The notes: generated by a model from the letters alone, not told the origin. Shown: positions 2,247 to 52,685, counted from the stretch's first letter. The stretch: 64,000 nucleotides of DNA from Lytechinus pictus (GCF_037042905.1 NC_087251.1:43712001-43776000); one strand, 5' to 3'. Numbers and translations are program-made.

Positions 2247-2997
2247 AGAAGTGGAATGCCTCTGGCAGTCTCAGGTCTGTGTTACGCAATTCAATAAAAG
2301 TGCTAACTTGGAAAACAAGTTAGATGAATAAGTATTCACAAAAAACACCATTCACATATAAAATACAACATTCATTGACCCTAAATGACCTTTGACCTTG
2401 ACTATGTGACCTGAAACTTGTGCAAAATGGTCAGTAATTACTGATATACTTGATTTCTCTTACATTGTACATACATTGTCCAAGTCTTATGAAATAGATC
2501 CATATACTTTTAAAGTTATGATGACATTTCAAAAAACTTAAACTTGGTTATTAAGATTTTGATGTTGATACCCCAATTTGGTCAAATTTCATTGATTCTA
2601 TGACATTTGACCTTAATCATGTTAGATGAAACAAGGATAAGATGATCAGTGATACTTGATTACTATTACATATATGTCAAAATTTCATGAACTAGATCTA
2701 AAATCTTTCAAATTTATGAAGGAATTTTGAAAAATACCCCCAACATGATCAAAGTTCTTTGACCCTAGGTGACCTTTGACCAGAGCCATGTGACCTGAGA
2801 CTCGTGCAAGATGATCAGTGATAGTTGATTACCCTTACGTCCAAGTTTCATGAACTAGGTCCACAAACATGTACTTTTTCAGTTATGATGACATTTCAAA
2901 AACTTAACCTTGGCCAAGATTTCAATCTCGGCAATGCCGCCGTCGAAAAAGCGGCGCCTTTAGTCGTGATCTGCTACATGTATGCAGGCGAGACAAA
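2247..2997 (-). mobile_element. Same family as 51687-52685
   Basis: AAGTGGAATGCCTCTGGCAGTCTC...GCAGGCGAGACAAA, TGACCTTTGACC subrepeats. Confidence 0.8.
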
Positions 2998-3384
2998 TAC
3001 CAAACTTGAAACTCTAGTACACGGCATGATTTCCACTCAATTAGTGACAAGTACATGTATTAAGTGTAGAAAATGCATGGTAATGCTTTTAAATTCATCA
3101 ACTTCTCTTTAAATATATATATATATATATGCATGTACAGTACATGTATATCTACAAATTGGATTGATTCTTCAAGATTGTATTGCTTCACCATAAAGAA
3201 TTCAGCAAAAGTTTGAAGAAAAAATATTTTCATTTCATGTAACTGCACTAATAACCAGATGGGAGCAAGGCCAAAACCAACTACTTACATGTATGAAAGC
3301 AGAAATTATGAAGTCAAGACTAGTCTACTCTGTACATGTATGCATTATTAGGGAAAGGAAAGAATTTATATGCACCTTCTCATC

Positions 3385-3502
3385 AAATATTACATGCAAG
3401 TAATAGTTGGAATTGATGTTCAGGAAATATTACATGCAAGTAATAGTTGGAATTGATGTTCAGGTAATATTACATGCAAGTAATAGTTGGAATTGATGTT
3501 CA
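3385..3502. repeat. 40-bp tandem repeat x3
   Basis: TACATGCAAGTAATAGTTGGAATTGATGTTCA at 3391, 3431 and 3471. Confidence 0.95.
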
Positions 3503-3990
3503 AAACATCTGTCAGAAAAAAAGACTGCATTGTATTAAACAAGTCCATATCTTCTAAAGATAGTATACAAAGTTTGAATTTGATAATCAAACCATCTACA
3601 GGTATTAAAGTATTTCCTAATTGATCAAATTAAACACACCCCCCCCCCCAAGAAAAAAAAACACATAAACAAATTTGAAGCATTCTTCAGTAATTTTTGT
3701 ATGTTTTGTGCAATGAGTACATGACTGACTGAAACACCGTCCGACCGCCTGGATGTATAGATGGATGGACAGATGAATGAACGAATGGAGGAATGAACAG
3801 ATGAATGAATGAACAAATAAATGACTGGATAAACGAATGAAATAATAATTAAATAAACTGATAGATCATTTAATAGATCTAGGAATCAATAAATAAATGA
3901 AACCACAACTGCGTGCATACATGAATTTATTGATCAGGATCTACATGTACACAGAGGTAAATCACCTGTTTTATCTTCAATTCTTTTTAA

Positions 3991-4576
3991 AGGAGAATAA
4001 AACCTTTGAAATAAGATAGCTTGTGTGAAAACAGAAAAATCAAAGAAACAGATCAACGAAAGTTTGAGAAAAATCGGACAAATAATGAGAAAGTTATGAG
4101 CATTTGAATATTGCGATCACTAATGCTATGGAGATCCTCAAATTGGCAATGCGACAAAGATGCGTGATGTCACTTGTGAACAACTCTCCCTATTACTTTA
4201 GTATATATTTCACTTGAATTGCCTCTTTTATCACATCTATCAGTAGATCATGTATTCTTTTTATATAGGAGGGCACGTAATACATATTTTTAAAGAATAC
4301 ATCATGGATAAAGAGTTTGTATCACCATAAAAAAAGCAAAAAGAGACATTTTGAGGGTATTTTATAGTCCATCAAAGGGAAAGTTGTTCACATGTGACAT
4401 CACACATCCTTGTCGCATTGCCAATGGGAGGATCTCCATAGCATTAGTGATTGCAATATTCAAATGCTCATAACTTTCTCATTGTTTGTCCGATTTTTCT
4501 CAAACTTTCTTTGTTCTTATTCTTTGATTTTTCTGTTTCGACACAAGCCTACTTGTTCCAAAGGTTTCATTTCCCT
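3991..4576. mobile_element. TTAA-flanked palindromic MITE, family K1 (Kolobok/ANGEL-like)
   Basis: TTAA|AGG...CCT|TTAA, long imperfect TIRs; relatives at 10278, 36895 and 58180. Confidence 0.9.
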
Positions 4577-5166
4577 TTAAGTCCCCTACAACAGAAAAAG
4601 AAATAAAAACAAAACAAAACCAAATCCTATTTACAATACATGAAATTCCCATGCATAGTAATTGAACATCAATAATGCCATTTCCATTAATGTATTGTAA
4701 ATTAAGCCTTATTGAAATATCAAACAACCCTGTGAGGTTACAATCCAAATGCCAAATCTAAGATTCATTAAAATTGTGTAACAGAATGTCTTGGCTTTGA
4801 AAACACACTTACCACGTAATCTCAAACATTTGGCATTCAAATAATAAACAATCAAGGCATGTAAAAAAGAAAATGAAGTTGGCATGTGCATATACAGACT
4901 GCCTAAAATATGCAACCAGGGTTGTTTCATGCATGCCTAGGGCATTGGTAAAAGGTCACACACAGTCTTGGTTCCCCCAACATGCTCATAATTTAGTGAT
5001 GTTGATGATAAAAGCAAGACTACAGCTAGAGCTTGTTGCAGTATATTTCCAATTTATACTCTCAATACTCACATGTAACTTAATAGTATCATGCAATATA
5101 TTACATGTATGTTGGTAACTGACACACATTAATCATACATGTATATACAATGTATTCCATCTTTAA

Positions 5167-5716
5167 CCTTTTGATCCAGAACCGGCCTCGTAGTGAATTT
5201 GCAAATAGCCAATAGGAAGGAATACCGTCCTGAAGCCATATGACATAAAAAATGGATTCGAAATGTCAGGTGATCTTTTAAACATAACGTCATCTTTCAA
5301 GTACAGTGTACGTGTAGGAATATCAGCCAATAATTTCAGTCAAGATTGGTATTCATTTTGGAAGGTTTTAGAATAAAATGTACTCCACTGCGGAGGAGTG
5401 ATATGTGGTAATACACTGCATAATACGCAACGAGTCATGACTAGTATGGGTAAGCTATGGAGTATGGATAAAATCTTACTTCAGTCAAAGCAGTGATTTT
5501 GAGCCTAAAACAGACACTAAAGATGAAAAGACCTGTAGACTAGGTCTAAAAAAAGCTTAACAGCTTAAGCCGGGTTGGGCTACCATGTAGACTAGCAGGG
5601 AAAATTATGCCACTGGTACTCGAATCATGGGAGTTTATGAAGGTGATGTGGTCGATATGTGCAAATAATTCACGATATGGGTAATGATTGCCCAAAATAA
5701 TTCAGGGTTCAAAGGG
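5167..5716. mobile_element. Degenerate piggyBac-like MITE
   Basis: TTAA|CCTTTTGA...TCAAAGGG|TTAT. Confidence 0.55.
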
Positions 5717-7840
5717 TTATACTGGGGACAACATTTACTCTTTATTTTGAACTACAATTTTTAGAAAAACCAAATAATACAATGCAAAATGCAAATTGAA
5801 TATTCAAATGTTCTTGAAAAATACTATCTTCATTTTATCTTATCAATAATTGGTTTTCACAACTTAAATGTATTTGACCTGATTTTTTAATAAATATTTT
5901 CAAACTTTAACAATAATTACAGCAACTGTAAGAAACAACAAATTTCTGCATAATATATGAGCCTCCGCATACACTCATTTTACTCAAATTTTTTGTTTGT
6001 CTCCTTTTTATATTTCTAAAGTTTATTATAAAAAACAACAAAAGAGTAAAGATAATTTCTATGGGACCCTGAAATACATGATTTTGTTTTTCAATATTAA
6101 ACCCACTCAGCCTTTTTTTCATAAGAGCTACAATTACAATGTATGGAATAATAACTTGATCTCAGGAAAAAAATATCATTAACAAACACAAAACTAAGAA
6201 AAGAAACTCGAACAAATTGCTTACATTGTACATGTACGAATATTAAATGAATCTTTAACTGATGCATTTGGAATATATCTAATTCAATTTGTGCGGTTCA
6301 CATTACCATCAACTGCCAAGAGCAAAATGAACTTTCCATCATGAGAGAATGTCAATTACTTCATCTATAAGTAAACAGCTCCAAACTGTGTAGCTAATGA
6401 GTTCTGAAGTACTCCACATGTAAATTGATCAAGGAGCTTCGTTAAACATGATTATGATGTAAAATGAGCGATAAGTCATTGAGCTTTCCTGCGATCTTCG
6501 CACCGTGGCGTGAGGAGAATGCCTACATGTACGCTGCGGTTTTGAATTTCGCGCGAAACTGAGAGCGTACCCATATCAACAAGATCGCTTTCGGTGAAGC
6601 CGTTTTGAAAACCACTTTCAGGTGTAAAAATGGGAACGCGATCTTCCAAACTGGTTTCCTGAATCGGTTTCCAGCAAACTACATGTACTTTTTAGGTTAG
6701 TAATGAGAAGTGAGAACAGTCTTTTTTTTGCACCTGCTGGGATAAACTCTAGTTGGATGAGTATGTATGTAGTCTCTCTCTCCAAAATCTTCATCAACAT
6801 TTCATCACTTTTGAAATATTTACTACCCTGGGTATGCCAAGCAAGTACAATATAGTGGGGTTTTGTTTTAGAGCTAAAGCAATAACAGTCTCATCATTAG
6901 CTTGAAATTGTTGAAACAACCCAATCAGGCCTACTGAAGAAATAAAGTCCTTAAAGGGGGGTTCACACTGACAAAGAATTTGTAAAATTGACTTTGATAA
7001 ATCAAAAAACAACAATTGAAATGCATTAGTGTAAATGTAGGTTTGGCAAAAAACTGTAAAGAATAACAGAGCCAGAGATTTATGAATTTTCAAGTTTTGA
7101 TAGGACACCACAAAACAAGCAGCTTCCCCCATATGTATATTCCATAAAATGTAATTTTCTTATGAAATGAAAATGTTATACATTCATAATATCATCAGAC
7201 ACATCCTATCACACCCCCTTCAATTGAAATGAAAAAAAATTATTCATAATGAACCATTAAAATAAACAATTGGTAGATAACACACTACGAGATATGAGGG
7301 GCAACTGCTGGCATATGACATTGTACATTAAAAAAATAAAAATGAATTTTCATCTTAACCTTCACATATTTTTTTTCTGCTTTTATCTTTAGGGTGCAAC
7401 GTCCAATTTATTTTCAAAATCATGTTTCCTGGCCTTAGCAAAGTTGGGCAATTAAAACTTTTGCATCAAATACCACATTGGGAGCTTTAAGGTCCTAGTT
7501 GCCAGGAGCATACATGTATATACATTGTAGACTGGTATCATCAATTTTTATTTGGAGCTATTAACACAAAAGCGCATCTTCATCTGCAAATAAGCAGGCT
7601 AGTTCGCCAAGTACTAGTTTATACACCATTTCCAAATTGAAACCCAAATGACTTTGGCTTGTAAAATACTGGTAATCTCCAACTGAGAGCTACAAAAAAG
7701 CCAGCTTATTGCACACCATTATTAAAAGTTAGCTGAGATGTAGATCTGAAGAAATGTGATAACTAAATTAATGTTCATGATATAACAAAATGCCAATTGA
7801 TATGAAATGTACAGGTTTGAAAAAAGTTTAAATTTTCCTT

Positions 7841-8445
7841 AACAAGTGGAATGCCTCTAGCGGTCTCACCTGCATCACGCGATTCAATATGGCAGCAGTG
7901 CTGGCTTTGAAAACTACTATAAAATAATTATTCACAAAAAAACATTCATATAATGATACAATACTACGTTCATTGATATTTGACCTTAATCATGTGACCT
8001 AAAACTTGTCAGTGATACTTGATTACCCCTACATGTATATCCACATTTTATACACTATATCTATAGGCTTTGAAAGTTATGACAGCAATCTAATAATTAC
8101 CTCTAAAATGGCCAAAGTTCAATGACCTTAAATGACCTTTGACTTTCGTTATGTGACCTGAAACTCGCATGAGATGTTCAGTGATACTTGATGACTCTTA
8201 TGTCCTAGTTTTATGAACTAGACCAATATACTTACAGAGTTATGATGGTAATTCAACAAATACCCCCAACATGGCCAAAGTCCATTGACCTTTGACCTTG
8301 GTCATGTGAACTGAAAATCGCACAAGATGTTCATTGATACTTGGTTTAATACTCTTATGTCCACGTTTTATGAACTAGACCAATACACTTACACGGATAT
8401 GATGGTAATTCAAAAATACCCCCAACATGGCCAAAGTTAATTAAC
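7841..8445 (-). mobile_element. Truncated copy of the 51687-52685 family (another fragment at about 9812-10035)
   Basis: Near-collinear reverse complement of about 52080-52685. Confidence 0.85.
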
Positions 8446-10277
8446 TCTTTTAGAGTTTTGACAACCTTATTACGTTACGTACGTAACGTGCCCTATCTTA
8501 AAAAAGAGATCCTTTTTACATATATTTGTTTGGTCACGCATAGTATCCACTCGTCAATGGAAGTGCCCCCCCCCCCCTATACATGCACATATACATAGGC
8601 CAGAAGGTTTTAGAAGTCCTTTCAAGACTATTCAACACATTTAACCTTGTACCACAGTCCTATTCTTAAAGAAATTGTGGGGGAATTGGATACTGAAAAC
8701 GATAACAAATAAAACAGAAAAGACTTTGCTTCAAAACATTCAGGCCTACAGCCCCTTTCACAATCGGTGGTGATACTGCTTACAACCGTTGCGATTCTGT
8801 GCAACATACATTGTGACCAAATGATCGCAAACGATCGCACGAGCAATTGTGAAAGCCCCTTAAAGGAGGGATGACCACAGGTCTGCACATAATACAGCTG
8901 TCTATTATCATTCCAACCATGTCATCTCCATTATTTACCTCGGCACTCTTCAATGACTTCTTTACAATAATACTTTTGAGATCAGGGGTGATCTTTTCGT
9001 CAGAATTGTCCTTCATTCAATCAACTGAATAATAATCAATTGATACACATGCTGCTGACATCAGTGACTGGCTACAATGCAATGGCACTCACACTATTGT
9101 CTACTTATTCATAACAGGTTCCCTTGCTTCAGTATACAGCACAGATAAATAGGTCGCTGACTTGAAATAGCTGGTGCGGTACCCTAAATTTTATGTCTTT
9201 AATTGTCAGCGTACCTAGGTAGAGATTACAAAGTAATAGACAGATATCTCCCTTTGATAAAAATTTAAAAAAATATTTAACAATACATGGACATTCCGCA
9301 CCTACAATTCTAAAGCCTGCAATCCCTAAACATGTGTGATATTTTATTTTCTACAACTAGATATTAAACCTGAAGGCATCTTCATTGGAAAAACGTGTAG
9401 ATACTTTAATACAAAAAGAATTTCCATAATGATGCATGTTCCATCCTTTCAATTCATGGGAGAAAAGGGGAATTTGCATAGGAATGAAAGATTGTTTCAT
9501 CATCATAATCATCGTCAGAGTTAAAGTCTGTTTTTCCCACTTTGTGGAATTGGATAGTTCATTTCCTTGATGGCTCTTCTCCCTACAGTCCTGTTATTTG
9601 GGTCAATGTGGGCACTGTGTCTGACGCTTTTCTGGTTGTATCGTAATATTTCATCAATGGCAGGATTGAGAATAATCATAGAACATAGAAACTTAGAAAG
9701 AGAATACAAAGACACACTCGCCTAACAAGATTTGAGCCACAAATGCTGGCTTTCATGACTACGGTACCTATTTTTTTTTTGTTTTTTTTTTATACATGTA
9801 CACTGTACAACAACATGGCCAAATCTCACTGACCTCAAATGACCTGCAACTTATGTCAAATGCTCAGCAACATGTACATGTATACCCTCTGTCTATGTTT
9901 CATGAAATACAATACTTTTATTAAAGTTATTCACAAACTTAAACCTGAGGTTAAGATTTTAATAATGACACCACACCGCCATCATTGCTTGGAAAAAGTG
10001 GCGTCTATCTCGCTTCTGCTGTGCAGGCGAGAAGTATAATGGATGGCGAGATATATTTTTTGAACTAATGCAAAGTGTACTATGTACATTTTGATTTTTG
10101 AACCATTTTTTTTCCATCAGCCAATTCCTATTTGAATAAAAGTATCTCTGTTTCAAATCATGAATGAATAGTCATCTTTCATGTCCACTCAATGGAAAAA
10201 ATAACAGCATAATTCAGATAAGAGCCTTTATAAACAAATCATAAAATGATTGAGACAATATACTTTGATAGCATTAA

Positions 10278-10861
10278 AGGAGAATGAAACCCTTGAAACC
10301 AGCTGAATCCATATCAAAGAGAAAAATCAAAGAAACATATTGTTGAAAGTTTGAGGAAGATTGAATGAATAATACGAAAGTTATGAGCATTTGAATATCG
10401 AGATCACTAATGCCATGTAGTTCCTCCCATTGGCAATGCGACCAAGATCTGTGATGTCACACACGTACAACTCCCTCATTACTTTAGTACTTATTTCACT
10501 TATATTCTCACTTTTATAGAGTCTGTCACAAGGTGAGGTGTTCTCTTTATGAGAGGACAGGTACAGGGGTTTCACAACATTATATCATTGATGAATCATT
10601 TGTCATATGATTAGAATGAGCAAAAAGAGATGTTTTGAGGTATATTTTCAGTGTCCAAAAGGGGAGAGTTGTTCATCTGTGACATCATAGATTTTGGTCG
10701 CATTGCCAATGGGAGGATCTCCATAGCTTTAGTGATCTCGACATTCAAATGCTCATAACTCTTCTATTGCTTGTCCTATTTTACTCAAACTTTTGTTGAT
10801 CTTATTCTTTGATTTTTCTGCTTTCACAAAAGCTAACTTGCTCCAAGAGTTTCTTTCTCCT
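10278..10861. mobile_element. MITE family K1 (subfamily)
   Basis: TTAA TSD, AGGAGAA...TTCTCCT termini. Confidence 0.88.
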
Positions 10862-11493
10862 TTAATCATTTTTTGCAGGTATGTTTAGTGTAAAATACAT
10901 GTACGATATATTTCATTATTCCTTAGATACCATTTGAATGGAATAAATTTATGTACATGTACTTTACAACTCATATAACAGATACACTGTACATGTAGCT
11001 GCCTTTTTAATAGCTGGGACTTGCTCTACTCTAGCCTTGTTAAAAAAAAATGGGCTACAATCAATTACCTCAACTTTGCACCAGAAAAGAGGATAATAGT
11101 ATTGATCATTTGGCGTTTGAAAACAGGAATTATTGGCTCTAATTCTGCTTCTTTCATGAGGAAAACCACACTGAGGAAGTGCGTAAACAATAGGATTTTG
11201 TAGGCGAGTGAGTGGTTGGCCGGATACAGACACCATTCTGCCTCACTTAGTAAGGAACTATTTATAACATGGCCGATAAAGAACAGGGCTTTAACTCCTA
11301 CAGCGGTTCTTGACACACTTTTTATACAACTTGAGGGCTATTGAGTCGGCAACATGACAAACGATAGTCCTTGATAGGATGAACAATCAATGTGTCCAAG
11401 GGATTCATACATACACCTGCGGGATCATATATCTTTTGTCACCTTTTGATTTTGAGTTCAAATCATAAAACAAAATATGTGCCATGTCTTTAA

Positions 11494-12098
11494 AGGTCAA
11501 GTCCATCCCAGAAAAATGTTGATATATATAAGTAGAGAAAAATCAAACAAGAATAGCACTGAAAATTTCATCAAAATCTGATTTAAAATAAGAAAGTTAT
11601 GACATTTTAAAGTTTCGCTTATTTTTCACAAAACAGTTATATGCACAACTCAGTGACATGCAAATGAGAGAATCGAAGATGTCTCTCACTATTTCTTTTG
11701 TTTTTTATTGTTTGAATTATACAATATTTCAATTTTTACAGATATTTGACAATAAGCACCAACTTGACTGAACCATAAATAAATTGTTAAAACAATGGTA
11801 ATTCCACATATTCAGAGAGAAAGAAAACTCTGTTTCACAGAGAAAGCGGAAAAAATAGAATATTTCATATATCATATAATAAAATACAAAAGAAATAGTG
11901 AGTGGATGATGTCATCAGTCCCCTCATTTGCATACTGACAAGGATGTGCATGTAACTGTTTTTGTGAAATTAACTGAAACTTCAAAATGTCATAACTTTC
12001 TTAAATACATCTGATTTTTATGAAATTTTCAGTGCTATGATTGTTGGATTTTTCTTTTCTTTTTTCAAACAACTTTTTATTAGGGTGGACTTGTCCTT
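11494..12098. mobile_element. TTAA MITE family K2 (Kolobok-like)
   Basis: AGGTCAAGTCCA...TGGACTTGTCCT termini at TTAA. Confidence 0.88.
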
Positions 12099-14389
12099 TT
12101 AAAGCAGATAATTAACACATTCTGTAAGAATCTGGATTGTCCCAAAGAATAAGGATCCAGTGTATTGTTTGTTGATGTCAATATATATGGAAGAGCGGAC
12201 TCTTAAAGGTCACTGGGACTAAAAGATCCACCTTTCTACCTGCTTGAATCCTTCATACTGAATTATTCAATATTAGACTATGCGTGAATTGCTGATATCC
12301 AAAAATGTCAGATTGAAGTCCACAGTAATCATGTTTTTGTTATCTGTTCTAAGCTTAAATAGTTTTGAAAGGAATAAACAGATCTGCCAAGTTCATTGGT
12401 TAGAAGGAAAATAAACTGCTTTGTTCTGCCTTTGATACCAAGGAGACAACAAAAAATGTGACAGATAGAATGTGAAAATTTCATCTTAATTTCCCCTTAT
12501 GGGCACCAAATCTCTTTTGGTTTACAATTCTTTGATATTTTATCAAATATTCAAACTATTACTGACAAATATGACTCTACTTGACTACCCCCCCCCCCCT
12601 CCATAGTTCAATGTACACCAGAGGGTGTCATTTTCACGAGTTTCAGGATAAATTTATTCTCTGTTTCTCTCTACTGCCGCCTGCTGAGTTATATGTGTCT
12701 ACTCAAATTTACCTGGTTATAAATTATGAAAAATGAAACCTTGAAAACATGTGTCGTATAAGCCTTCAGAGGTCAAGGCAATACAAGTGCACATATACCC
12801 TATGGATTCCAAGATATTTTTCTAGCAGGGAATGTTAATAGTGAGAGAACTATGCATTTCATGTATAGACAGTGCATGCATTCTGGAGAAAGCTTGTTCT
12901 ATCATCTGTATCACAAAAGCAAAGAAATCTTTAATAGCTTGAGGAATGAGGAATAATGGAAAAAATACAATAAAAAATCTTAAGGGTTATATTTCTTGAT
13001 GAGTATTGCAGTAGAAGCTTTGGCATAAAATTGATTAAATAGAGATTACAATGTACATGTACATGTACAGTTGTGTTCATAGTGAACCCAACCAAAAATG
13101 CACTCCTTCATGCTGAGTGTTGATGTAGGCCAATATGTAGACAAGAATCTCCCTGTATAGAATCTACACAAGGACATGCATATCGTCACACGAACAGAAA
13201 CCTTATTGCGGGCCTTATTAGTTATGCACATGAGTGACTCTTTGTATGTACATGTATACCCAAGCACAAGTCTCAATATTTATATTTCACCTATTTTAGT
13301 TTCTTAACCAATTGTCATCAAACAAATGTAACAGATGTTTGAATTTTACAATGTACATGTAGGATCTAACATCAATAGGCATTCATTTCCATTGAGCTGA
13401 AAAAGTACACATACATGCATACATGTGTACACTTGAATATATCCAAATCACAATTCTTCCAATTCTGAACAATGACTTTAAGTGTATGGTGCTCTAAAAT
13501 TGATTAATTCCTCATTATACTTTATGACATGACTATGAATTTATATCTTGAATGGTCTCGCCCAACCAGCACAGAAGATTTTTGACCACCACTCATCATG
13601 AAAAACACTGCTTCCATCCATCACTAATTTCAAATGAAAAGTAATTTAAAACTAAATCCTTGCAAAGAGGAATTGCACTTGTGTTCATGTCCATCTTTAA
13701 GTTTAATCTTATTTTGATTGCATATTTTACATTAAACTCTCTTATATTTTGATAAATATTAGTTCATTTTCAAATTTTTGCTAATGTCAGATTTTCATTA
13801 CAATGATGTTCCTTCACTTTGGGCTTTTAAGACCACTAACTCGGCCTGAAGAAAACTTTTGTAATGCCGTGAAATAGCGACCACCAATGGGTCTAGCTAA
13901 CACTTTTTTAAAGCATACTGTCCAATTCACTTTTGCAATACATTTCAAGCAGAATAATGACAATAATTTTCTTTAACTATTTTTAAAGAATTTTTAATGA
14001 TTTATTTATTTATTCATATTTATTTATTGATAGACTGACATATCAATCATTTTCCTAAAGCATGCACAGTACATACAGCAATAGCATTTGGCCTGTGCAG
14101 TACTTTCAATCCATCACTTTAATAATTGAAGAGCATTTTCGTTTGCCGTACTAAGGGATGTCCTAACTTATTTTCTGATTGTACTACAAGTAATTCAAGA
14201 TATTTTTTTATTTCATTCCATTCAAATTAGATGGTTCATAAAATGTGCATAATTACCCTACAACATTTAAGCATTAATTCAAGTAAGAATATATTCATGC
14301 TGTTCTATTGTGTACCGGTATTTTAATTTTTTGTGTGTCCACATTATTACCATGAACACATTTTTTTTTCAATTACACACATATTTTAA

Positions 14390-14962
14390 AGGACAAGTCC
14401 ACCCCAACAAAAAGTTGATTTGAATAAAAAGAGAAAAATCAAACAAACATAACACTGAAATTTCACCAAAATCAGACGTAAAATAAGAAAGTTTTGTTCA
14501 ATTTCACTAAACAGTTATAGGCACATCCTGGTCTTATGCAAATGAGGGGACTGATGACATCACTCACTATTTCTAGATTGTGTTTTATTATATGAAATAT
14601 TCTAACTTTCGCCTCATTGTCTTTTGAAAAAAAGTTTTATGCCTCCCTGAACATGTGGAATTACCATCGTTTTAACATTTTACAGTTCAGTCATGTTGGC
14701 CCTTATTGTCAAATCTGTAAAATATGAAATATTGTTTAATTCAAACAATGAAAAAAAAAAGTAATAGTGAGGAACATCATTGAATTTATCATTTGCATGT
14801 CACCGAGATGTGCATACATGTACAACTAAAAATTAAGCCAAACTTTAAAATGTCATACCGGTAACTTTCTTATTTTACATCAAATTTTGATGAAATTTTC
14901 AGCATTATGCTTGTTTTTTCTGTAGTTATTCAAATCATTTTTTTCTGGGGTAGACCTGACCT
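14390..14962. mobile_element. MITE family K2
   Basis: AGGACAAGTCCACCCC...GGGGTAGACCTGACCT. Confidence 0.85.
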
Positions 14963-15199
14963 TCAAAAATGCTCACATACAGTACCTGCATAATATGTCA
15001 CCACTGTGCATGAAATCTAACTATGAAATTGATGTTTACAATACACTTCCATAATTCATACTCCTGGCACCTAATCTGAATATCTGATATAAATGATTTT
15101 CTCTTTAATTCTGTAAACTGTACTGCTAAATGACAAGTCTGAAAACATATGAAACATGTCTTTCTGCTATAAAATGGTGTAACATTTGAGAGTACTTAC

Positions 15200-20904: not shown

Positions 20905-20935
20905 CAGTATTATTTTTTATTATTGTTAGTAGTAA

Positions 20936-20968
<33 letters not shown>

Positions 20969-21009
20969 CAGCAGCAGCAGCAGTAGAAGTAGAAGTAGAA
21001 GTAGTAGTG

Positions 21010-39929: not shown

Positions 39930-40196
39930 GTATCTTGACAATAATAGGCCTATTTTAGGTCAATCTTTCAAAATTGTGACAAACTTTTACATCACAAAAA
40001 TGCACATATGGGACTGAACTTTAGCATATGATTTGCACCATCACCATGCACCAGCGAATATAATAGTAATAGTAATACCGGTATTCCTGAACAATTGCCA
40101 TGACCATGCATGCCCATGTCATGATGAGACCTCTAAATTAAGGTTTTGATCATAAAGAAATACATTGTCATGACTCATGGATAAAGTAGACTTAAC

Positions 40197-40649
40197 CAGT
40201 AGAGGCGCACGGCCAATATGGGAGACTCTCTCCAATAGCAATAGGGGAGACAATCTCCCACATTGGAGACTTGCTTTGCAAAAGGACAAAAGAAACAACA
40301 CCAACAAAAGCATGATTTTTTCAACCAAAAATTTTGTCTCACTGAGGTCAGAAGCCCATTTGTTTTGTGTGTGATTGACAACAAAAATCCTTATCAAAAC
40401 AAAAGTAGACGGTGAATTTTTAAAGTAGAAGGTGAAAAAGGGTAATTTTTCATGAGGAATCTCCTTATCACATTTTTATTTGCCGCCAAGGTAATCCTTT
40501 TGCAGCAAATGTAAACAAAGGAAATTGGTCGCCAAAACTGGAGACCGTCTCTGAAATTGGATACCCAAATTCTTTACAAAAGTCTCTGATATTGGAGATA
40601 ATCTCCCACATTGGAGACAGTCTCCAATATTGGCCGTGCGCCTCTACTG
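40197..40649. mobile_element. TIR MITE with 5-bp TSD
   Basis: 31-bp TIR CAGTAGAGGCGCACGGCCAATAT(G/T)GGAGACT with one mismatch; TTAAC on both sides. Confidence 0.9.
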
Positions 40650-42736: not shown

Positions 42737-42815
42737 ATGAGAGACAAGACAGTGCACCAGCTGGTGGTGGTGACTCAGGAGGGTTTACTGGTAGTCTCAG
42801 TATTGAAGATACAAA
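42737..42815 (+). CDS. SART1: SART1 exon 2 (first half of HIND motif)
   Basis: tttcag acceptor, gtaagt donor; DERQDSAPAGGGDSGGFTGSLSIEDT(N); joins exon 3 to give SLSIEDTNKLRAKLGLAPL, the Hub1/UBL5-interaction motif. Confidence 0.93.
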
Positions 42816-43901
42816 GTAAGTTCAGTTTACTAATTTTATGCCTTCTGAAAGTCTGCATAAATATGTTTAAAAAAAGTATACTGTCATCTGTGTCAGGATC
42901 ATTCAAAATGTATATCAATATAGATCTTGTTAATAAGTAAATGCAATGACAATCCACTTAGATACCATAATTCACAGCTTTGAATAGAAGTTGTTTGGGC
43001 ATGGTTTCTCTAATTGTATTTCAACTGTGTGTGTTTTTTTTTAAAAGTAAATGTTATAAAGTTCTTCCAAATTTCCAACAATGAACATTGTTGCATAATG
43101 ATCAAGGTTACATGTACTTTGCATTTGTCCACTCAAACTTGTAAGCAAATTTTGAAATAGTGGAGAAATACTTGCCCAACATTGAATTTAATTACCCAAA
43201 ACATATGAGTATAACAACATTTTCAAGAGGGGGGGGGGGGGGGGGGGTGGTGAGTGGTGTCTTCACTTTATTTTTATCCAGTACATTCATATTGACTTTT
43301 TAAACTTAAAAACCACAAAGCAACATCAAACTGATAAATTCAAGATTGTTTTATCTTACAAACTCAAGACCAATTATAAGACATATATATGTATGCTCCT
43401 GCTTGTTGCAGTTAATTTTACATTGAGAAATTTTGTGTTTTGAAGGATGAATTGTGTAGTGTGAAAACTTTAAAGAAAATACACTTTTATTAGTGAATTA
43501 TTGATCGCCCAATTCAGGCATTTTGCTCACTATATATCCTTTAAGTTGTCATTAGAGTGGCGGTGCAGTACCACTGGTGCTCAATTGTTATTTTTTTCAA
43601 GCAATCTCTTTATGATGACATTTTTGCATTTTTTTTTTGAAATGATATATTTTAGTACACTTATTCAATGATTCACCATTCAAAGTATCACCATATCATG
43701 TTTATTATGTTATGAAAAATGTATTACATGAATGCCAAAGAGAGCAAATTAAATGAGTATGAAATAAAATATATAAAATCAACTGAAAATATATGTAAAA
43801 TAATATCAAGTCAGTGCACATATTCCAAAGTTCCTAAAAACAAATAGATGAGTAATAATATCAGTTTACTGATCTGTGAGATTTGTATTGACCTTAAACA
43901 G

Positions 43902-44096
43902 CAAACTTCGAGCCAAACTAGGGCTTGCTCCATTGGATGTTGACGGTGAGGGGGCTGGAGAACCGGGGGAGATCGTGGAAGAGAAGAAAGATGTCCACAA
44001 GCCCGCAGTCAACATTTCTGATATCAAGAAGACAGAGGCTCTTAAAGAGAAAATGGCACAGATTCGTGAGAAGAGACTCATAAACAAGAAGCTACA
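43902..44096 (+). CDS. SART1: SART1 exon 3
   Basis: aacag/gtaagt; KLRAKLGLAPLDVDGEG...VHKPAVNISDIKKTEALKEKMAQIREKRLINKKL; phase 2-2. Confidence 0.95.
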
Positions 44097-44158
44097 GTAA
44101 GTGTTCTGTAAAAAGCTTTTATGTGTGTAAGTCGATATAGTATAGAATCAAACCTTAA

Positions 44159-44553
44159 AGAGAAATTCCAGTAGTTGCAGTAAACACTGATTTCATGAGA
44201 AAGTCTGTAAAACCAGGTTTAATTGTCAGTATATCATCGAGGATCTAGATCTGGTACAGTTACATAAACTGAACTTTGTGAAATCTTGAAATCTACGCTG
44301 AAAAATGTTCAGACTGAACTTCCCCAACACAGATAAGCGCACGTGGGACAGTGTATAATTATTGCTTTGAGCGTCGGGCCCGACGCTCTACCCGAATCCT
44401 GTGCTTATTTGCTGATTTCTCAGCAATTACACAATTTCTTCCAGAATCCTTTGGCACATGCGTTTTATTTATACAAACAGACACTTTGGTGGTCATTTCA
44501 TTGGATTCTGTACGAACTCATTTTGATATCGTTACCAAAACTAGCATTTACCT
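44159..44553 (+). mobile_element. TTAA MITE family K3
   Basis: TTAA TSD; highly similar to 63319-63712; older copy at about 53780-54153. Confidence 0.9.
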
Positions 44554-44558
44554 TTAAC

Positions 44559-44758
44559 CAGGGCTCGACATTAGCAGTGGCCCGGTGGCCCTGGGCAACC
44601 AAAAGTGAGAGTCGGGCCACCAAAATTCTGTAAACGCCAACACTTGGTTTATTGTTTTAGGGCCACTAAGTTTGCTTTGCGGGCCACAAAAAATGTGAAA
44701 TTGATGATCCTGGTGGACCGATCGGGCCACAGAGAAAAAAAGTTAGTGTGGAGCCTTG
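44559..44758. mobile_element. hAT-like MITE
   Basis: CAGGGCTCGACATTA...TTAGTGTGGAGCCTTG, imperfect about 8-bp TSD, internal GGGCCAC repeats. Confidence 0.6.
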
Positions 44759-44883
44759 CCTTAACCCTAAGCACAAGATAGAAGCTCGATTTTTCCTACA
44801 ACATTGGACATAATATGATTGAGTGATACATAAAGAATTGATGCAATACCCACTGTCCCCTTAATCATTTCTGAAAATATTCA

Positions 44884-45335
44884 AGGACAAGTCCATGCCA
44901 ACAAAAAGTTGATTTGAATAAAAAGAGAAAATTCCAAGAAGCATAACACTGAAAATTTCATCAAAATCGGATGTACTGTAAAATAAGAAAGTTATGACAT
45001 TTTAAACTTTTGCTAAATTTCACAAAACAGTTATGCACTTTCTGGTTGGTATGCAAATGAGGAGACTGATGACATCACCCACTCTTTCTTTTGTATTTTA
45101 TTATATGAAAAATTCTATTTTTTTCCTCATGGTCATGTGACACAAAGTTTAACCCCCCCTGATCATGTGAAATTACCAGTTTTTAGAACATTTTATGGTT
45201 CAGTCCAGTTGGTCTCTATTGTCTAATCTGTAGATATTAAAATATTGTATATAATCCAAAAAAAAAAAATAGTGAGGGACATCATTGACTCCCTCAATTG
45301 TACATATAACTGTTTTGGGGAAAATAAACCAAAAT
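44884..45335. mobile_element. MITE family K2, truncated
   Basis: Aligns to 14390-14850. Confidence 0.8.
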
Positions 45336-45459
45336 TAGGTAAAATGAATAATAGAATATGCAATCAAATACTTTGGTCGGGTGACTGCAATTTGTGTGTA
45401 TGTTAATTCAAGTCAAGATATTGAGCAAGGTTTTGACTGTAATTGTATGTTATTTACAG

Positions 45460-45562
45460 CAAAGTCAAGACCTTAGCTGATGATGATGACGATGATGATG
45501 CCGCAGCTTGGGTGGAGAAGATGAGGAAGAAACAGGTTGCTAAGGCTGAAGCAGACAAGAGG
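45460..45562 (+). CDS. SART1: SART1 exon 4
   Basis: ttacag/gtgagt; KVKTLADDDDDDDAAAWVEKMRKKQVAKAEADKR; phase 2-0. Confidence 0.95.
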
Positions 45563-47273
45563 GTGAGTTATCAGTTGGAGGAGAGAGAGAGAGATAGAGA
45601 GAGGTAGAGGAAAGCGATAGAGAAAGGGGATAGAGAAAGAAAGAGAGAGAGAGAGAGAGAAAGGAAAGACAAGGGAACATAAATAAAGGAGGTAAAAAAA
45701 ACAATATGAAGCATACTGGTTTTGCCATATCAACACAGATATTCAGTCAGACCGCAGGTCCCTATGCTAATGAGCAAAAAGGCCAGATTCATCCAAATCA
45801 TCTCGTGGCTGAATCCTCCTTCTTGCAAAATCTCGTGATTCGTGAGATTTTCTTTCTCTAAGAATTTACCTGTTTTAACCTCAAGTTAAATGAAATATTA
45901 TTGCACCATCAGATAGAGTAAATGTTACTCTTTCATATTGGTCATTTATTTTGTATACAATATTTTGTTAAATAAGTATATTTCTAGCCTGAAATTGTGC
46001 CTCAAAACTGAATTTTCTTCCTCTGTTTTCTTTTGCAAATTGTGCAAAACTTTTTATTTTGAGCCTCAATGATATCTATATCACCATAAAGCTGAACTTC
46101 TGTATTTTCTGACAATACCACTCTTGATATGCGGCACCTTTTAATCGGGTCAAGATCACACATTTCCCACCAAGGTACAAGACGAGATTTCTGAAATTTT
46201 GTACTTGCATGAAATCCAGAGTTCTGATTGGCTGGATAAGGTTCACAGAACAACAGGCGCAGGGTATTTGAGGAGATTACCACATGGGAAGTGTGACCTT
46301 CCCATGAACCCAGGCACTGGAACCGTTGGAATTGCCAGTGTGTGGTCTCTTTGACCAATCAGAGTGCAATATTCTTGTTTTCAAGCTGCTTTATGTACTT
46401 GGCAAATGAAAAGTGTGATCTTGACCCGATTAAACCAATTCTTATTTTGAAACCTATATCATTTTAAAGCATACATATTCAGCTTTATCATGATCTAAAA
46501 ATCATTTGGGCACAAACAAAAATAAAGTGTGAAAATAGCAGCTTTTGTCAGGTGAAAATAATTATTTTGTAGCATATTTTAGATCAAAATTTTAACCTAT
46601 TTACAAAATCTTTGAATAATTTCAAACACATGACCTGAAAGAATGATTCTTCTTCTTTACAATGATACCAAATTCATGACATTCGATGCACAATTAGAGC
46701 AGCAATGACCGAATGAAAAGAGGTGTTCTGGTCCGCATCAAGCTCATTAAATATGCAAAACATCTCAAGTCATGAATATCACTTGGATGAAAGAAGCCAC
46801 TTTCTTGGGACCTGCCGTCTGACTGTATTTTGGTAGAATTTGTAAGAATTTCAGTTGAAATTGTAAGAAATTCCAAAGGAAATTTGTATCAAAGATGACT
46901 TCATATGCAGAAAAAGAGACTTTTTGTAATAATTAAGTGTTGCGTTGTGAGAAACAACTGAAAAGCCTGGGGTTTTGAGGGATAACGTAAAGTGACATGA
47001 TATGTGGAATCTTAGGGAAGGGATTATTATCTGCATATTGTAAACATCTTGAGGGAAGAAAAAAAATATATATTTTTTGTTTTTGTGTTGAGTAGTTAGT
47101 TCGCAATTCAGGATTCAGATGTTGTTTGAAGTGAAAAATTTTGACATTGTTTCCACGTAGAAAACAAATATGAAAAACAGTTGACTGTAGTGAACCATGT
47201 TTTATAATTGAATAGAAAATAACTTGAATTACTCACAACATTGTAATAATTTCTTTCTACGTTCATATTTCAG

Positions 47274-47357
47274 GCAAAGATGCTGGAGGAGATGGATGCA
47301 GAATTTGGTATTGGAAAAATTGTCGAGGATGAATTCAGCAAGACTAAAGAGCAAAGT
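47274..47357 (+). CDS. SART1: SART1 exon 5
   Basis: tttcag/gtaagt; AKMLEEMDAEFGIGKIVEDEFSKTKEQS; phase 0-0. Confidence 0.95.
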
Positions 47358-47794
47358 GTAAGTATGCTTGTCATCATGATCAATCCAATGTTTTAAATCC
47401 GGTTTTGTCCCCGTGAATGGGGGTGGCCGATTTCACCTCACACTCGCCCTTACCCCCCTCCCTCCACTTTGCCCGATTCAGTGCATTCTCCATCCTCTAC
47501 CTAACCCTCCTATTCTCCTCCTCCACTTGCCTCTTCCATGTCTTCTTTGGCCGTCCCCTCCTCCTCCTCGAACCACCCACCTCAAACTCAAAAGCCCTTC
47601 TCAATACACGCCCGTCATTCTTCTTCAACTTAAGTAAAGCGGTGAAATCATACTTCTTGAAGTTCAATGGAAAATGTAGTTTATAGAATCACCACATACC
47701 CAACTTTGTATTTTATTGATTTCAAATGTACAATTGTTTTACAGGAAGTATGGTTGAATTGATTGGAACCATAGACTCATCTTTTCCATCTCGC

Positions 47795-48910
47795 AACTAC
47801 CACCACTGTCATCACCTTCACCACCACCACCGCCATGAAAACAATCGTCAATGTCACAGCAAGCACCGCCTTCAACCATCACTACCACCACCACTATCAC
47901 CAATACCACCACCACCAATCACCCTCATCACCACCACTACCACCACCACCAATCACCCTCATCACCACCACCACCACTACCACCAATCACCCTCATCACC
48001 ACCACTACCACCACCTCCACCACCACCACCAATTACCCTCATCACTACCACCACCACCACCAATCACCCTCATCACTACCACCACCAATACCACCACCAC
48101 CAATCACCACTATTACCAATACCACTACCACCAATCACCCTCATCACCACCACTACCACCACCTCCACCACCACCACCAATTACCCTCATCACTACCACC
48201 ACCACCAATCACCCTCATCACTACCACCACCAATACCACCACCACCAATCACCACTACTACCAATACCACTACCACCAATCACCCTCATCACCACCACCA
48301 CCACCACCACCACCTCCACCACCAATTACCCTCATCACTACCACCACCACCAATCACCCTCATCACTACCACCACCAATACCACCACTATTACCAATACC
48401 ACTATCACCAATTACCCTCATCACTACCACCACCACCAATCACCCTCATCACTACCACCACTACTACCAATACCACTACCACCAATCACCCTCATCACCA
48501 CCACTACCACCACCTCCACCACCACCACCAATTACCCTCATCACTACCACCACCACCAATCACCCTCGTCACTACCACCACCAATACCACCACCACCAAT
48601 CACCACTACTACCAATACCACTACCACCAAACACCCTCATCACCACCACCTCCACCACCACCACCAATTACCCTCATCACTACCACCACCACCAATCACC
48701 CTCATCACTACCACCACCAATACCACCACCACCAATCACCCTCATCACCACTACTACCAATACCACCACCACCAATCACCCTCATCACCACCACTACCAT
48801 CACCACTACCACCCCCACCACCAATCACTCTCATCACCACCAATACCACCACCTCCACTTCACATTTATTACCAACAACCTCAACCTCACTGCCACCACC
48901 ATCATGACTA
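47795..48910. repeat. Compound (CAC)n-based minisatellite in SART1 intron 5
   Basis: Recurrent CCAATCACCCTCATCAC(C/T)ACCACC modules. Confidence 0.97.
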
Positions 48911-49099
48911 CCATGCACTAAAGACTGTGATATTTATCGCAATATGAATGAGTGTGACAGTGATTATATTGATGCTATTACACTGCTTTAATTATTTATC
49001 CCTTGTAAATGGACTAATGTGGTTTTTTAATGATATATTTCAGATACATAAATGAATGCAAAATAATGTATTTTATTTGACTTCCTCAAAATAATACAG

Positions 49100-49196
49100 A
49101 AATACTCTCGGAGAAACTTGGAAGGTTTTAAAGTGGAACATTCGATGAAGAACTTTCAAGAAGGACAAAATGTCATTCTTACATTAAAAGATATGG
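49100..49196 (+). CDS. SART1: SART1 exon 6
   Basis: atacag/gtaagt; KYSRRNLEGFKVEHSMKNFQEGQNVILTLKDM (conserved ILTLKD); phase 0-1. Confidence 0.95.
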
Positions 49197-49667
49197 GTAA
49201 GTAGTAAGTCTACATGTTTGAACTTATGAAATCGCTTTATATGGAAAAAAAATGTACTGGAATGTTCTTTCTAGTTTCGATACTAATATTTATTACCATT
49301 TACTGTTCTGTAAAGATGATATGTTTGCGGAAAATGGTATGCCATAAACCTAAACCATAGGCATAGGGACATTGGTGAAGTTGTTAAGAGACGAGAGGAA
49401 GTTTGGTTTATGAGGTCAATATTCGAGTACAGAATGTAAGGCAATGTTGTATGAGACCCTTTGCAATCAATTACAAATTTCTGTTGCAATTTTACAATTG
49501 ATAGATCAATGTTAGCTTTTTTTAAGCCAGCATACACTCCTTGTAAGAAGCAGATTAGTGATCAAGTGTAAATTAGCTATTAATTGCAAGACATACATAT
49601 GATTGATGTTTGAGACCCAAAATAGATGTGCAATTGATTGCAAGTTTCTTGCAACGCCCCATAAGAT

Positions 49668-50349
49668 TTTTATGCCCCGCAGACGAAGTCCGAAGGGGAC
49701 ATTAAGCGTTGCCCTTGACCGTCCGTCCCCCACTGGTTTCCGCGCAATAACTCGAAAAATATTTAATGGATTTGAAAAATTTTTAGTGTGTAGGTAGATG
49801 ACACCAAAATACAAGCTAAGTTTGAATTTGGAGTGTGCAGGTCAAAGGTCACAGCTCATTATATATGCGAGTTTTTTTTCCACATGATAACTTTGGAAAT
49901 ATTCACCAGATATTAAAAATGTTTGGTGTCTGGGTAGATGACACCAACACCAAAATACAGGCTAAGTTTGAAATCGGAGTCCAAAGCTCACAGCTCATTA
50001 TATATGCGAGTTGGTTTCCGCATGATAACTTTGGAAGTATTCACCAGAATCAATCCCAGTTCAAGACACTGCTGCAAGTAGCTGTATTGAAAAAATTTAT
50101 GAGACAGCAAGACCACATTTTCATATGACACAATGAAGTGAGGGATTATCCACATCAAATGACCTGACTGTCATATCTTCTGTCAGAGATTATTATGGAA
50201 AGGATGAGTCTTTAGGTCAAAGGTCTAAATTTGTTCATTATATATGCATATTGGTTTCTGCACGATATTAAGTTCAGTCATATTGAATGAATTTCTGATC
50301 GCGTTATGCGGGGCATCTGTGTTTTTTTGAAAACATCAAATTTCTAGTT
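49668..50349 (+). mobile_element. Helentron/DINE-1-like element, further family
   Basis: ATGCCCCGCA...TGCGGGGCAT subterminal IRs, (CCGT)n, 3' TCTAGTT. Confidence 0.7.
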
Positions 50350-50412
50350 TAATCAAAGGTTGTTTACTTTTTTAAACACATAATTCCTTGTCTTTTCTTT
50401 TACCATATGTAG

Positions 50413-50552
50413 ATGGCCTGCAGGAAGAAGAAGATGTATTAGTGAATGTTAACATGATCGATAACGAGAGAGCTAAGAAAAATGTCGAACTGAGAAAGAA
50501 GAAACCAGATTACAAGGCTTACCAAGAAGATGACTTTGATGAAGATGGAATG
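50413..50552 (+). CDS. SART1: SART1 exon 7
   Basis: tgtag/gtgagt; DGLQEEEDVLVNVNMIDNERAKKNVELRKKKPDYKAYQEDDFDEDGM; phase 1-0. Confidence 0.95.
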
Positions 50553-51293
50553 GTGAGTCAATTCTAACATTATCTGGAGATACAAAATAAAAGATACTTC
50601 TATCGGTCCTTGAATGCAGGCACAACATAAAAATTTTGGTGATTCCAATGGCTTCAAATACATATAAAAAAAAACCAAGAGATGGGAAGAAACTACATAT
50701 GTACAATATATTATAACATTGTGCAAATATCTTTCTGCAATATATACCCTTTGAAATTCATTAGTCAAAAGTAAGATGACTGTCTACTCCTGAATTCATG
50801 TACTTGCCCCATGAACACTTTATTTTTGTGACTTAATATTCAATTTTCTCAATTTTAAAGCATCCATGATTATGTGTGCAGGCATTGTGATATCACAAGT
50901 TTTGGCCGTGGTTCAATGCATATGAGTAACAAGCCAGTAAACATAGGCGTAAAACCTGCCTTAGTTTCTATACCATTGGCTTGTTATATGATATAGGGCC
51001 ATATTGTCCAAAAGTTGAAGGACAAGCTATTCTTGTTTTCAGTTTTGTAATATTTGGAGCGTGTAAAGTAATAATAATAATAGTAATATTCTGCTTTGAT
51101 TTAGCACTCTACATATTTAAAGTGTCTTACAATGTATTATTACCATCGTAATCAGATTTACCTAGATATACCTTGATTTTCAATGCTCAGCCAACTTGTC
51201 CACGAATATGCCCATTTATATACAGATTTCTTAGAAGTTTGTCTTTTAATGTGAAAGTAATGTTAGTTTTCCAAACCTATCTTCCTGTAACAG

Positions 51294-51440
51294 TTCCGGC
51301 ACAAGACACTTCTTGGCAAGTATGATGAAGAGATCGAAGGAGAGCAGAAGAGATCGTTTCGTCTCAACCAATCAGGAATTGCCAATGTGGGTGATGAAGA
51401 TTATATGCAGAACATCCGAGATCAACTTAAGCAACAGGCT
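51294..51440 (+). CDS. SART1: SART1 exon 8
   Basis: taacag/gtaagt; FRHKTLLGKYDEEIEGEQKRSFRLNQSG...QLKQQA; phase 0-0. Confidence 0.95.
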
Positions 51441-51686
51441 GTAAGTATCTGTTCCATTCGGTGGATTCACAGTATGGTGCGCCACCTATCAGTTGCAGCG
51501 GACAGGCTGATATTCGCAATGCCTAATGGGAAATAAGTTGACATCTGTAGTGCGCGCTAGTGCATGCAAGGATTATGCTGCGCTGGCCGACGCGGCTCGG
51601 CCGGCTTGCATAAAATTTTACTGTTAACCAGGGTCCAGGAAGTGGGAGAGAAATTTGCCGCATATTTCTTTGCGAATTTTAGACTT

Positions 51687-52685
51687 TTTTTGTCTCACCT
51701 GCATAGCAGAGTGAGACTTTAGGCGCCGCTTTTCCGACGGCGGCGGCGGCGGCGGCGTCAACACCAAATCTTAACCAAAGGTTAAGTTTTTGAAATGACA
51801 GCATAACTTAGAAAGTATATGGACCTAGTTCATGAAACTTGGCCATAAGGTTGATCAAGTATTACTGAATATCCTGCTTGAGTTTCAGGTCACATGACCA
51901 AGGTCAAAGGTCATTTAGGGTCAATGTACTTTGGCCAAATTGGGGGTATCTGTTGAATTACCATCATAACTTTGGAAGTTTATGTATCTGATTCATGAAA
52001 CTTAGACATAATAGTAATCACGTATCACTGAACATCCTGTGCAAGTTTCGGGTCACATGATTAAGGTCAAAGGTCATTTAGGGTCAATGAACTTTGGTCA
52101 AATTGGGGGTATTTGTTGAATTACCATCATAACTTTGAAAGTTTATCGGTCTAGTTCATAAAACTTGGACATAGAGTAATTAAGTATCACTGAACATCCT
52201 GTGCGAATTTCAGGTCACATGACCAATGTCAAAGGTCAATGAACTTTTTCTATAATGGGGGTATTTGTTGAATTACCATCATAACTCTGTAAGTATATTG
52301 GTCTAGTTCATAAAACTTGGACATAAGAGTCATCAAGTATCACTGAACATCTCATGCGAGTGTCAGGTCACTTGACCAAAGTCAAAGATCATTTAAGATC
52401 ATTGAACTTTGACCATTTTAGAGGTAATCATTAGATTGCTGTCATAACTTTCAAAGTTTATAGATATAGTGTATAAAATGTGGATATAGGGGTAATCAAG
52501 TATCACTGACAAGTTTTAGGTCACATGATCAGGGTCAAATGTCAATGAACGTAGTATTGTATCATTATATGAATGGTGTTTGTTGTGAATAATTATTTTA
52601 TAGTAGTTTTCAGAGTCAGCACTGCTGCTACATGTATATTGAAATGCTTGAGGCAGGTGAGATCGCCAGAGGCATTCCACTTGTT
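51687..52685 (+). mobile_element. Helentron/DINE-1-like element, full copy (nested in a TIR MITE 51457-52849)
   Basis: 5' T-run + GTCTCACCTGC, (GGC)n, about 130-bp internal repeats rich in AGGTCA, 3' GCAGGTGAGA...GGCATTCCACTTGTT. Confidence 0.8.

Follow-up and report, generated by a model that had tools for sequence, protein, structure and literature searches.

Clustered TA-bounded palindromes in a 64-kb window of Lytechinus pictus as probable excision scars of a TA-targeting DNA transposon

The stretch analyzed here, called the window throughout, comprises 64,000 nucleotides of the Lytechinus pictus genome (GCF_037042905.1 NC_087251.1:43712001-43776000). It is eukaryotic DNA with 36% GC (guanine plus cytosine), in which dispersed and tandem repeats are abundant. 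Its subject is the eight-letter palindrome TACATGTA, bounded by TA on either side and present at 34 sites spanning 1071–52629, which probably records the excision of a DNA transposon. The genes at the locus are the following; features listed further below without a strand are strandless.

39620..63954, plus strand: SART1 (U4/U6.U5 tri-snRNP-associated protein 1), exons in part, from Pfam and PDB matches
15200..15286, minus strand: conserved coding exon that has an ATG and a GTAAGT splice donor, from homologous short proteins (64–69% identity)

SART1 was assigned from PF03343 (E=4e-6, below the curated cut-off) and from PDB entry 5o9z_P (E=1.4e-5), and the 5' exon at 39620 presumably belongs to the same gene. 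The minus-strand exon, which we take to be part of a phospholipase C-beta gene, gave no direct Pfam or PDB match itself; two of its homologues match PF17787 (PH_14) weakly, with E about 0.03, below the cut-off. Most of the zone densest in the palindrome lies downstream of this exon and is read as intron. The Pfam scan of the minus-strand frames covered 44 of 156, and more exons may lie in that zone.

Markov backgrounds of orders 0 to 4 predict 2.2, 1.5, 2.3, 2.8, and 5.3 sites. The preliminary description of the window had estimated the word by eye at about 30–35 occurrences against a few expected, and the count of 34 against 1.5–2.8 for orders 0–3 bears this out. The excess also survives the background check in the window, as the order-4 expectation falls to 2.3 once the TACATGTA sites are collapsed out; orders 5 and 6 give 12.7 and 25 sites from a background made of the word's own sub-words. 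The range of 2975..52636 first given for the sites covers most of them and misses two (1071, 1438). Among palindromic 8-mers TACATGTA ranks first in enrichment (log10 P about -24), and among the 16 words of the form TA-xy-y'x'-TA it reaches 34 against 2.0 expected, the next-highest count being 11. The closing TA is needed, with TACATG continuing otherwise staying at background (7.8% vs a TA frequency of 7.6%).

The sites are concentrated in the first 16.6 kb, which hold 26 of the 34 in 27.6% of the TA sites (P=4e-9), so that about 2.0% of the TA dinucleotides of this hot zone carry the word.

1064..16585: hot zone, 26 TACATGTA sites, CpG observed/expected ratio about 0.4, from word counts
Hot-zone starts, part 1: 1071, 1438, 2975, 3052, 3141, 3286, 3333, 3942, 5102, 5136, 6229, 6524, 6680
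Hot-zone starts, part 2: 7511, 8030, 9793, 9875, 10896, 10954, 10990, 13054, 13060, 13249, 13354, 14815, 16578
20779..30766: the sole two TACATGTA sites (20779, 30759) of a 22.9-kb intergenic stretch, from word positions
41731..43116: second small cluster, five sites (41731, 42256, 42551, 42620, 43109), 2–3.5 kb inside the SART1 5' end

Site density declines with the CpG ratio (Spearman -0.58 over 32 neighbouring, non-independent bins), as would be expected if the word were a by-product of CpG decay, from CG to CA or TG, in methylated DNA, and one copy in the independent contig L006 was formed in that way. However, Markov models that include the CA/TG excess expect about 1 hot-zone site, precursor words number only 2, and pairs of paralogous repeats differ at these sites by gains in length. 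Decay is thus largely refuted as the main source, an origin to which we give very little credence, and may supply 2–3 background sites. A methylated gene body is also not a sufficient condition for the word, because the 3' part of SART1 from 44.2 to 64 kb, although CpG-poor (0.49), is nearly empty, with 1 site in 19.8 kb. The clustering of the sites in the 5' parts of two genes could recall a transcription-factor site accumulating under selection in first introns, and papers on Phytophthora list TACATGTA among promoter motifs. This explanation is very unlikely: the word arises by insertion within decayed repeat copies, its density in dispersed repeats does not differ from that in unique DNA (3 sites vs 5.6 expected, P=0.34), and selection for one site predicts neither the companion words nor the compounds described below.

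Five of the 34 sites have a comparable repeat copy across the site, the remaining 29 having none in the window. Three of the five are clean gains from TA to TACATGTA, one requires a substitution, and one is ambiguous. They are listed with two related gains at other copies of one of these positions.

2461..2477: 14-bp gain starting TACATTGTA at a TA homologous to 8030, from unit alignment
2667..2674: 6-bp gain TACATATA, one mismatch from TACATGTA, at a TA homologous to 8030, from unit alignment
2975..2982: TACATGTA, clean 6-bp gain at TA against a repeat copy near 51689
8030..8037: TACATGTA, clean 6-bp gain at TA against a 92%-identical sister near 52490 and seven plain units
14815..14822: TACATGTA within a dispersed repeat, a plausible gain with an ambiguous repeat alignment
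42256..42263: TACATGTA, clean 6-bp gain in a single copy of a tandemly duplicated 75-bp segment, from alignment
52629..52636: TACATGTA, 6-bp gain; in the sister near 7885 the empty site reads CA, and one substitution is required

In each clean case length is gained at a TA and the TA is duplicated, as in a Tc1/mariner footprint. The 6-bp gains that the preliminary description had proposed at 2975, 8030, and 42256 are clean in alignments. At 52629 the gain itself stands, the empty site being CA and not TA; at 14815 it fits only if a neighbouring 8-bp loss is accepted, a gap-free alignment being possible too. The direction of change can be followed best at 8030, where 12 aligned units comprise eight with plain TA, three with gains, and one too diverged to read; these eight plain units agree with the earlier view of gain over deletion, and the alignments support reading TACATGTA sites as gains and not losses. 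The gains at 2461, 2667, and 8030 are best read as separate events, because the sister of 8030 is empty. The dispersed element concerned, which has internal tandem units of 153–163 bp, occupies 2245-2997, 7840-8450, and 51689-52685, and its three scarred copies all lie in the hot zone. At 2864-2871 a further 6-bp gain, AACATGTA, is seen against sister units and is probably a decayed scar.

Clean-flanked indels between repeat copies include about eight distinct 6-bp gains, of which six are TA scars: three exact TACATGTA, two near matches, and one TACCGGTA, the last two gains being unrelated. The indel records, which are not de-duplicated events, number 80 of 1 bp, 33 of 2 bp, 21 of 4 bp, and 13 of 6 bp. 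Since the 6-bp records are outnumbered by those of 1, 2, and 4 bp, the scar dominates its own size class and not overall mutation, and the earlier term of a dominant mutational process was overstated.

The palindrome is accompanied by a nine-letter relative, TACA-N-TGTA, with 18 occurrences against 1.9 expected, 11 of them in the hot zone; the middle base is A or T in 12 and C or G in 6. Six of these 9-mers overlap an 8-mer at a common TA, and another two lie two bases off. Such compound clusters account for 8 of 25 in the hot zone and 0 of 8 outside. In the hot zone the 8-mer fills 6 of the 22 TA sites in 9-mers, compared with 6 of 200 TA sites that share this half-context and 12 of the 1073 remaining ones (P=3e-4). 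Longer spacings, TACA-N(k)-TGTA with k=2–29 and the 8-mers collapsed, yielded no class like k=0 or 1 (0–5 each vs about 2 expected). Two gains with other cores were also found.

13047..13067: triple compound in which two 8-mers with a common TA follow a 9-mer, from word positions
1064, 5136, 6222, 7511, 9793, 10983, 13347: further compounds, from word positions
14856..14863: TACCGGTA, 6-bp gain at TA, a second core with the geometry of TACATGTA, from repeat alignment
44974..44980: TACTGTA, 5-bp gain at TA with the shape of a Sleeping Beauty-type footprint, from alignment, a single case

Among the 10 rows aligned at 14856, TACCGGTA is present in one, plain TA in six, and three are uninformative; the word itself occurs 3 times against 0.22 expected. 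Two more TA-bounded palindromes were observed, TAGGCCTA at 30753, 39445, and 39945 (3 vs 0.3 expected), the first sharing a TA with TACATGTA, and TAGATCTA at 2693, 3874, 32931, and 53854 (4 vs 0.7 expected). They could be more scar cores, or chance.

The flanks of the reconstructed empty sites alternate between purines (R) and pyrimidines (Y). Scored out of 6 against RYR-TA-YRY, all 34 sites average 4.32 against a background of 3.10, and the 24 left after removing 10 stacked or tandem-explainable ones still average 4.12 (P=5e-5); control words TA-N4-TA score 3.08. The scar motif also has C or G at +5. A similar alternation at +1 to +3 characterizes the target motifs of Tc1 (CAYATATRTG) and Sleeping Beauty (RCAYATATRTGY), as tabulated in PMC2577343. 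The sites therefore display a palindromic, alternating target preference at +1 to +3, and their flank bias may be called Tc1/Sleeping Beauty-like, the fit being partial.

The same alternation could also be taken as a sign of a transposon-free process, in which a host polymerase, healing breaks or stalls in purine/pyrimidine-alternating DNA, adds a short palindrome, with (TACATG)n later expanding as a young microsatellite. The filling of 9-mer TA sites goes beyond what target taste explains and fits this proposal, as does the lack of a donor found for the scars. Three contigs of a viral collection, scanned for the triple run, each hold one local (TACATG)n run without scattered scars around it, which agrees with slippage and is in itself uninformative. 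An AT-rich contig of a viral collection (L022:2955-3020) has TACATG and TACATT units in its run and no scattered sites in the rest of the locus. In the window, tandem duplication of a local 6-mer could explain only 5 of the 34 sites, leaving 29 whose insert is not a tandem copy of adjacent sequence as in a slippage-born microsatellite. The CATG core was gained at 2975, 8030, and 42256 without a template in the flanks. No host enzyme is known to insert a constant core of four bases while duplicating the TA. Repair or slippage without a transposon is accordingly an unlikely origin, if one to be taken seriously.

One-mismatch versions of the word are also in excess in the hot zone, with 29 against 17.2 expected (P=0.006), or 27 without tandem copies (P=0.017). 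This excess of about 12 compares with about 25 for the exact word, a long process of constant rate giving about 1:1 (P=0.02). Because the ratio lies below about 1:1, it suggests that the scars are fairly young, with roughly 5% mean divergence. The presence of mismatched versions also speaks against an artefact of library or assembly, such as a ligation junction around CATG. CATG and GTAC are indeed common restriction sites, but the flanks are colinear with sister copies and the independent contig L006 shows the pattern too, which makes such an artefact the least credible of the origins considered.

We consider that, with a probability of roughly 0.7, the TACATGTA sites were left by the excision of a DNA transposon that targets TA, the repair having retained both 2-nt CA overhangs. 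A cut-and-paste element with CA...TG ends and a Tc1-like target taste would insert and duplicate its TA. Later germ-line excision, with cuts placed two bases within either end, would leave the chromosome with two non-complementary 3' CA overhangs. Host end joining would keep both, using one CA overhang as the template along which the other is extended over the break, to give TA-CA-TG-TA (+6); an extra base at the joint would give TACA-N-TGTA (+7). Compounds could arise when one TA is hit twice, or when a single repair extends both ends and joins them through their terminal TA, and a CC-ended element would yield TACCGGTA by a like route. The pile-up in CpG-poor gene bodies might mean that elements land there more often, or that only scars, and not whole elements, are tolerated there. 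Tc1 breaks do have non-complementary 2-nt 3' overhangs (PMC4490562), and the repair route is chosen by the host (PMC2874221); the usual product of Tc1-type excision in worms, however, is +4 (PMC12632400).

Compared with Tc1/Tc3 of C. elegans, whose footprints are TACATA and TATGTA in the accessible descriptions, the sites likewise show a gain at TA, TA on both sides, a terminal CA or TG kept, and flanks alternating as in CAYATATRTG at +1 to +3. They differ in that the usual Tc1/Tc3 product is +4, whereas here CA and TG are both kept (+6), +4 words are not enriched, and TA sites are scarred at a density of 2%. TACATGTA itself is probably a minor Tc1/Tc3 product. The footprint of Minos appears to have the same net size, +6 bp at TA, but to take its four inner bases from a single end and to lack a palindrome, whereas the palindromic core here fits two bases per end. 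Sleeping Beauty (TACAGTA, TACTGTA) shares the TA target, CAG...CTG-type ends, a similar motif, and the single TA→TACTGTA gain; its products derive from 3-nt overhangs and are not enriched here, and its footprint list, in the accessible part of bioRxiv 10.1101/659086, is without TACATGTA. The sites would work like a Tc1/mariner footprint; their membership in that group is putative, because the canonical +4 and +5 shapes do not predominate and no donor was found for them.

The CATG core would suit any element with CA...TG ends. One element in the window has suitable ends and had been put forward as a candidate donor type.

31553..32295: Tigger/pogo-type miniature inverted-repeat transposable element (MITE) flanked by duplicated TA, its CAG...CTG ends compatible with the scars; probably not their main donor

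The MITE exists as described, with perfect ends: it runs from CAG at 31555 to CTG at 32293 between TA dinucleotides, and its 24-letter end (TA plus 22) is identical on both sides. No other match to this end, at up to 3 mismatches, was found in the window. In metagenome contigs the end motif occurs at 19 loci, most of which are 0.8–2.03-kb elements encoding CENP-B_N, HTH_Tnp_Tc5, and DDE_1. The MITE has 35 of 38 terminal bases in common with the 2.03-kb elements, and it is for this reason assigned to the Tigger/pogo type; its TA duplication and CAGT-starting inverted ends, shared with transposase-encoding elements, are those of such MITEs. At L007:4001-6035, L008:4001-6030, and L018:960-2993 lie young Tigger-like elements of 2.03 kb, nearly identical to one another, whose transposases are frameshifted, and this set of contigs, from another eukaryote, holds 0.8-kb and 1.8-kb deletion forms as well. 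The locus L006, a contig of 1011 bp with three 8-mers and two 9-mers, contains a 299-bp element from the MITE's subfamily, and the target TA on the right of this element doubles as the opening TA of a TACATGTA.

From the MITE it is clear that this genome harbours TA-targeting elements with CA ends. The MITE family might also be the main donor of the scars, given its CA-starting ends, the duplicated TA, the terminal bases common to transposase-encoding relatives, and the sister copy that adjoins TACATGTA in L006. Passer, a pogo element, favours the 5' regions of expressed genes (PMC9976928) and leaves footprints of 0–4 bp. The target flanks of the family are nevertheless unlike those of the scars: a pyrimidine occupies +2 in 13 of 17 half-sites of the relatives, which come from other hosts and supply these 17 half-sites only, whereas 33 of the 48 scar half-sites carry a purine there (P=0.0017). 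The Passer consensus, AAGTACTT, agrees with the pyrimidine at +2 of the relatives (PMC9976928). The Tigger/pogo group (CENP-B_N + HTH_Tnp_Tc5 + DDE_1) thus shares ends with the MITE and differs from the scars in its targets, and TACATGTA is not in excess in the relatives' contigs. The MITE is probably not the main donor, and a donor role of its family, as a special case of transposon excision, appears doubtful. The interpretation of the preliminary description is in this way partly supported: the gains, the untemplated CATG core, and the Tc1/Sleeping Beauty-like flanks speak for it, and neither the dominance of the process nor the MITE as donor was upheld.

Several observations weigh against transposon excision as the source of the scars. 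The flanks have no G bias at +4 (11 vs 11.2) and at +1 prefer C over T, unlike the Tc1 motif. The canonical words are not enriched in the hot zone, with TACATA/TATGTA at 19 vs 20–21 and TACAGTA/TACTGTA at 3 vs 3, and TACTGTA is at 9 vs 10 expected in the whole window; outside the hot zone TACATA/TATGTA reach 49 vs 35–39 expected. Three of the 18 9-mers (37140, 23585, 24378) read as ancestral sequence from repeat copies. Of the internal 8-mers of L006, one arose by substitution and the other by a net 5-bp gain relative to the window's MITE copy. Near the young Tigger elements TACATGTA shows no excess, with 2 vs 2.3 in 63 kb of 8 non-redundant loci. Beside its 26 scars, the hot zone yielded no TA-flanked, CA-ended element whose inverted ends were convincing (best 15 of 18), so that near-certain re-excision, or strong selection against whole elements in these introns, would be needed. 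In rice, by comparison, Mariner elements make 2.6–2.8 insertions per excision (PMC4423477). In the window as a whole, the MITE at 31553–32295 alone has convincing TA-flanked CA ends, CC-ended candidates do not exceed 14 of 18, and a Tigger transposase query gave nothing significant (best E=0.66). A short repeat pair at 664-943/55484-55761, possibly an old MITE, is flanked by TA and has inverted ends that begin with CAAA and match imperfectly (15 and 14 of 18). In the accessible text of PMC1636448, PMC520745, PMC5224488, PMC7913693, PMC2874221, and bioRxiv 2022.10.12.511941, TACATGTA is not given as a footprint, and no account of genome-wide TACATGTA scars was found in a literature, accessible in part, whose footprints are often confined to figures or supplements.

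Excision footprints are commonly studied in single reporters, and in genome surveys they count as rare and irregular; in rice, only 8 of 94 excisions were 'perfect' (PMC4423477). If a uniform scar marked 2% of the TA sites of an intron and no intact donor lay nearby, cut-and-paste activity in this genome would be far greater than counts of elements suggest. Such a scar would reveal how breaks with 2-nt overhangs are repaired in a marine invertebrate germ line, and it would give a neutral, countable, polarized marker for dating activity and mapping landing sites. More tentatively, hit-and-run transposition may be a standing germ-line mutational process, in which elements almost never stay, about 1 in 50 TA sites becomes scarred in some gene bodies, end joining keeps and cross-extends the overhangs, single repairs write compounds, and compounds attract further hits and seed (TACATG)n. 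If this were true, the scars would chart germ-line chromatin access and past transposition across the genome in a datable way, a record almost wholly missed by element counts, and different cores (CATG, CCGG) would record different element families. For motif discovery the case is a caution, since an enriched intronic palindrome here need not be a factor binding site. New to the present analysis are the clustering in the CpG-poor 16.6 kb, the flank alternation, the companion 9-mer, the three-copy scarring, and the TACCGGTA and TACTGTA gains.

The remaining repeats of the window are diverse. Elements of about 600 bp, with TTAA-like sequence at their borders and long inverted ends, fall into two families that we take to be Kolobok-like, the first at 3986-4580, 10273-10869, 36887-37346, and 58175-58755, and the second at 11488-12103, 14383-14968, 35556-36816, and 44869-45346. 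Long inverted arms at 24485-25785 and 27912-28884, 2–3 kb apart, contain 158/170-bp subrepeats and match over up to 640 nt at 96%. They are flanked by fragments that we take to be reverse-transcriptase-like, for which no Pfam match was found, and the whole looks like a foldback element inside a decayed long interspersed nuclear element. In the SART1 introns, an acidic open frame at 59769-60122 (plus strand) presumably resembles a piggyBac-type N-terminus, and frames at about 61400-62440 presumably resemble a retroelement; neither gave a Pfam match. Tandem repeats include a seven-copy array of a 155-bp unit at 18149-19233, a TAG microsatellite of 207 copies with internal higher-order repeats at 20927-21551, and a 1-kb CAC-rich minisatellite at 47889-48889.

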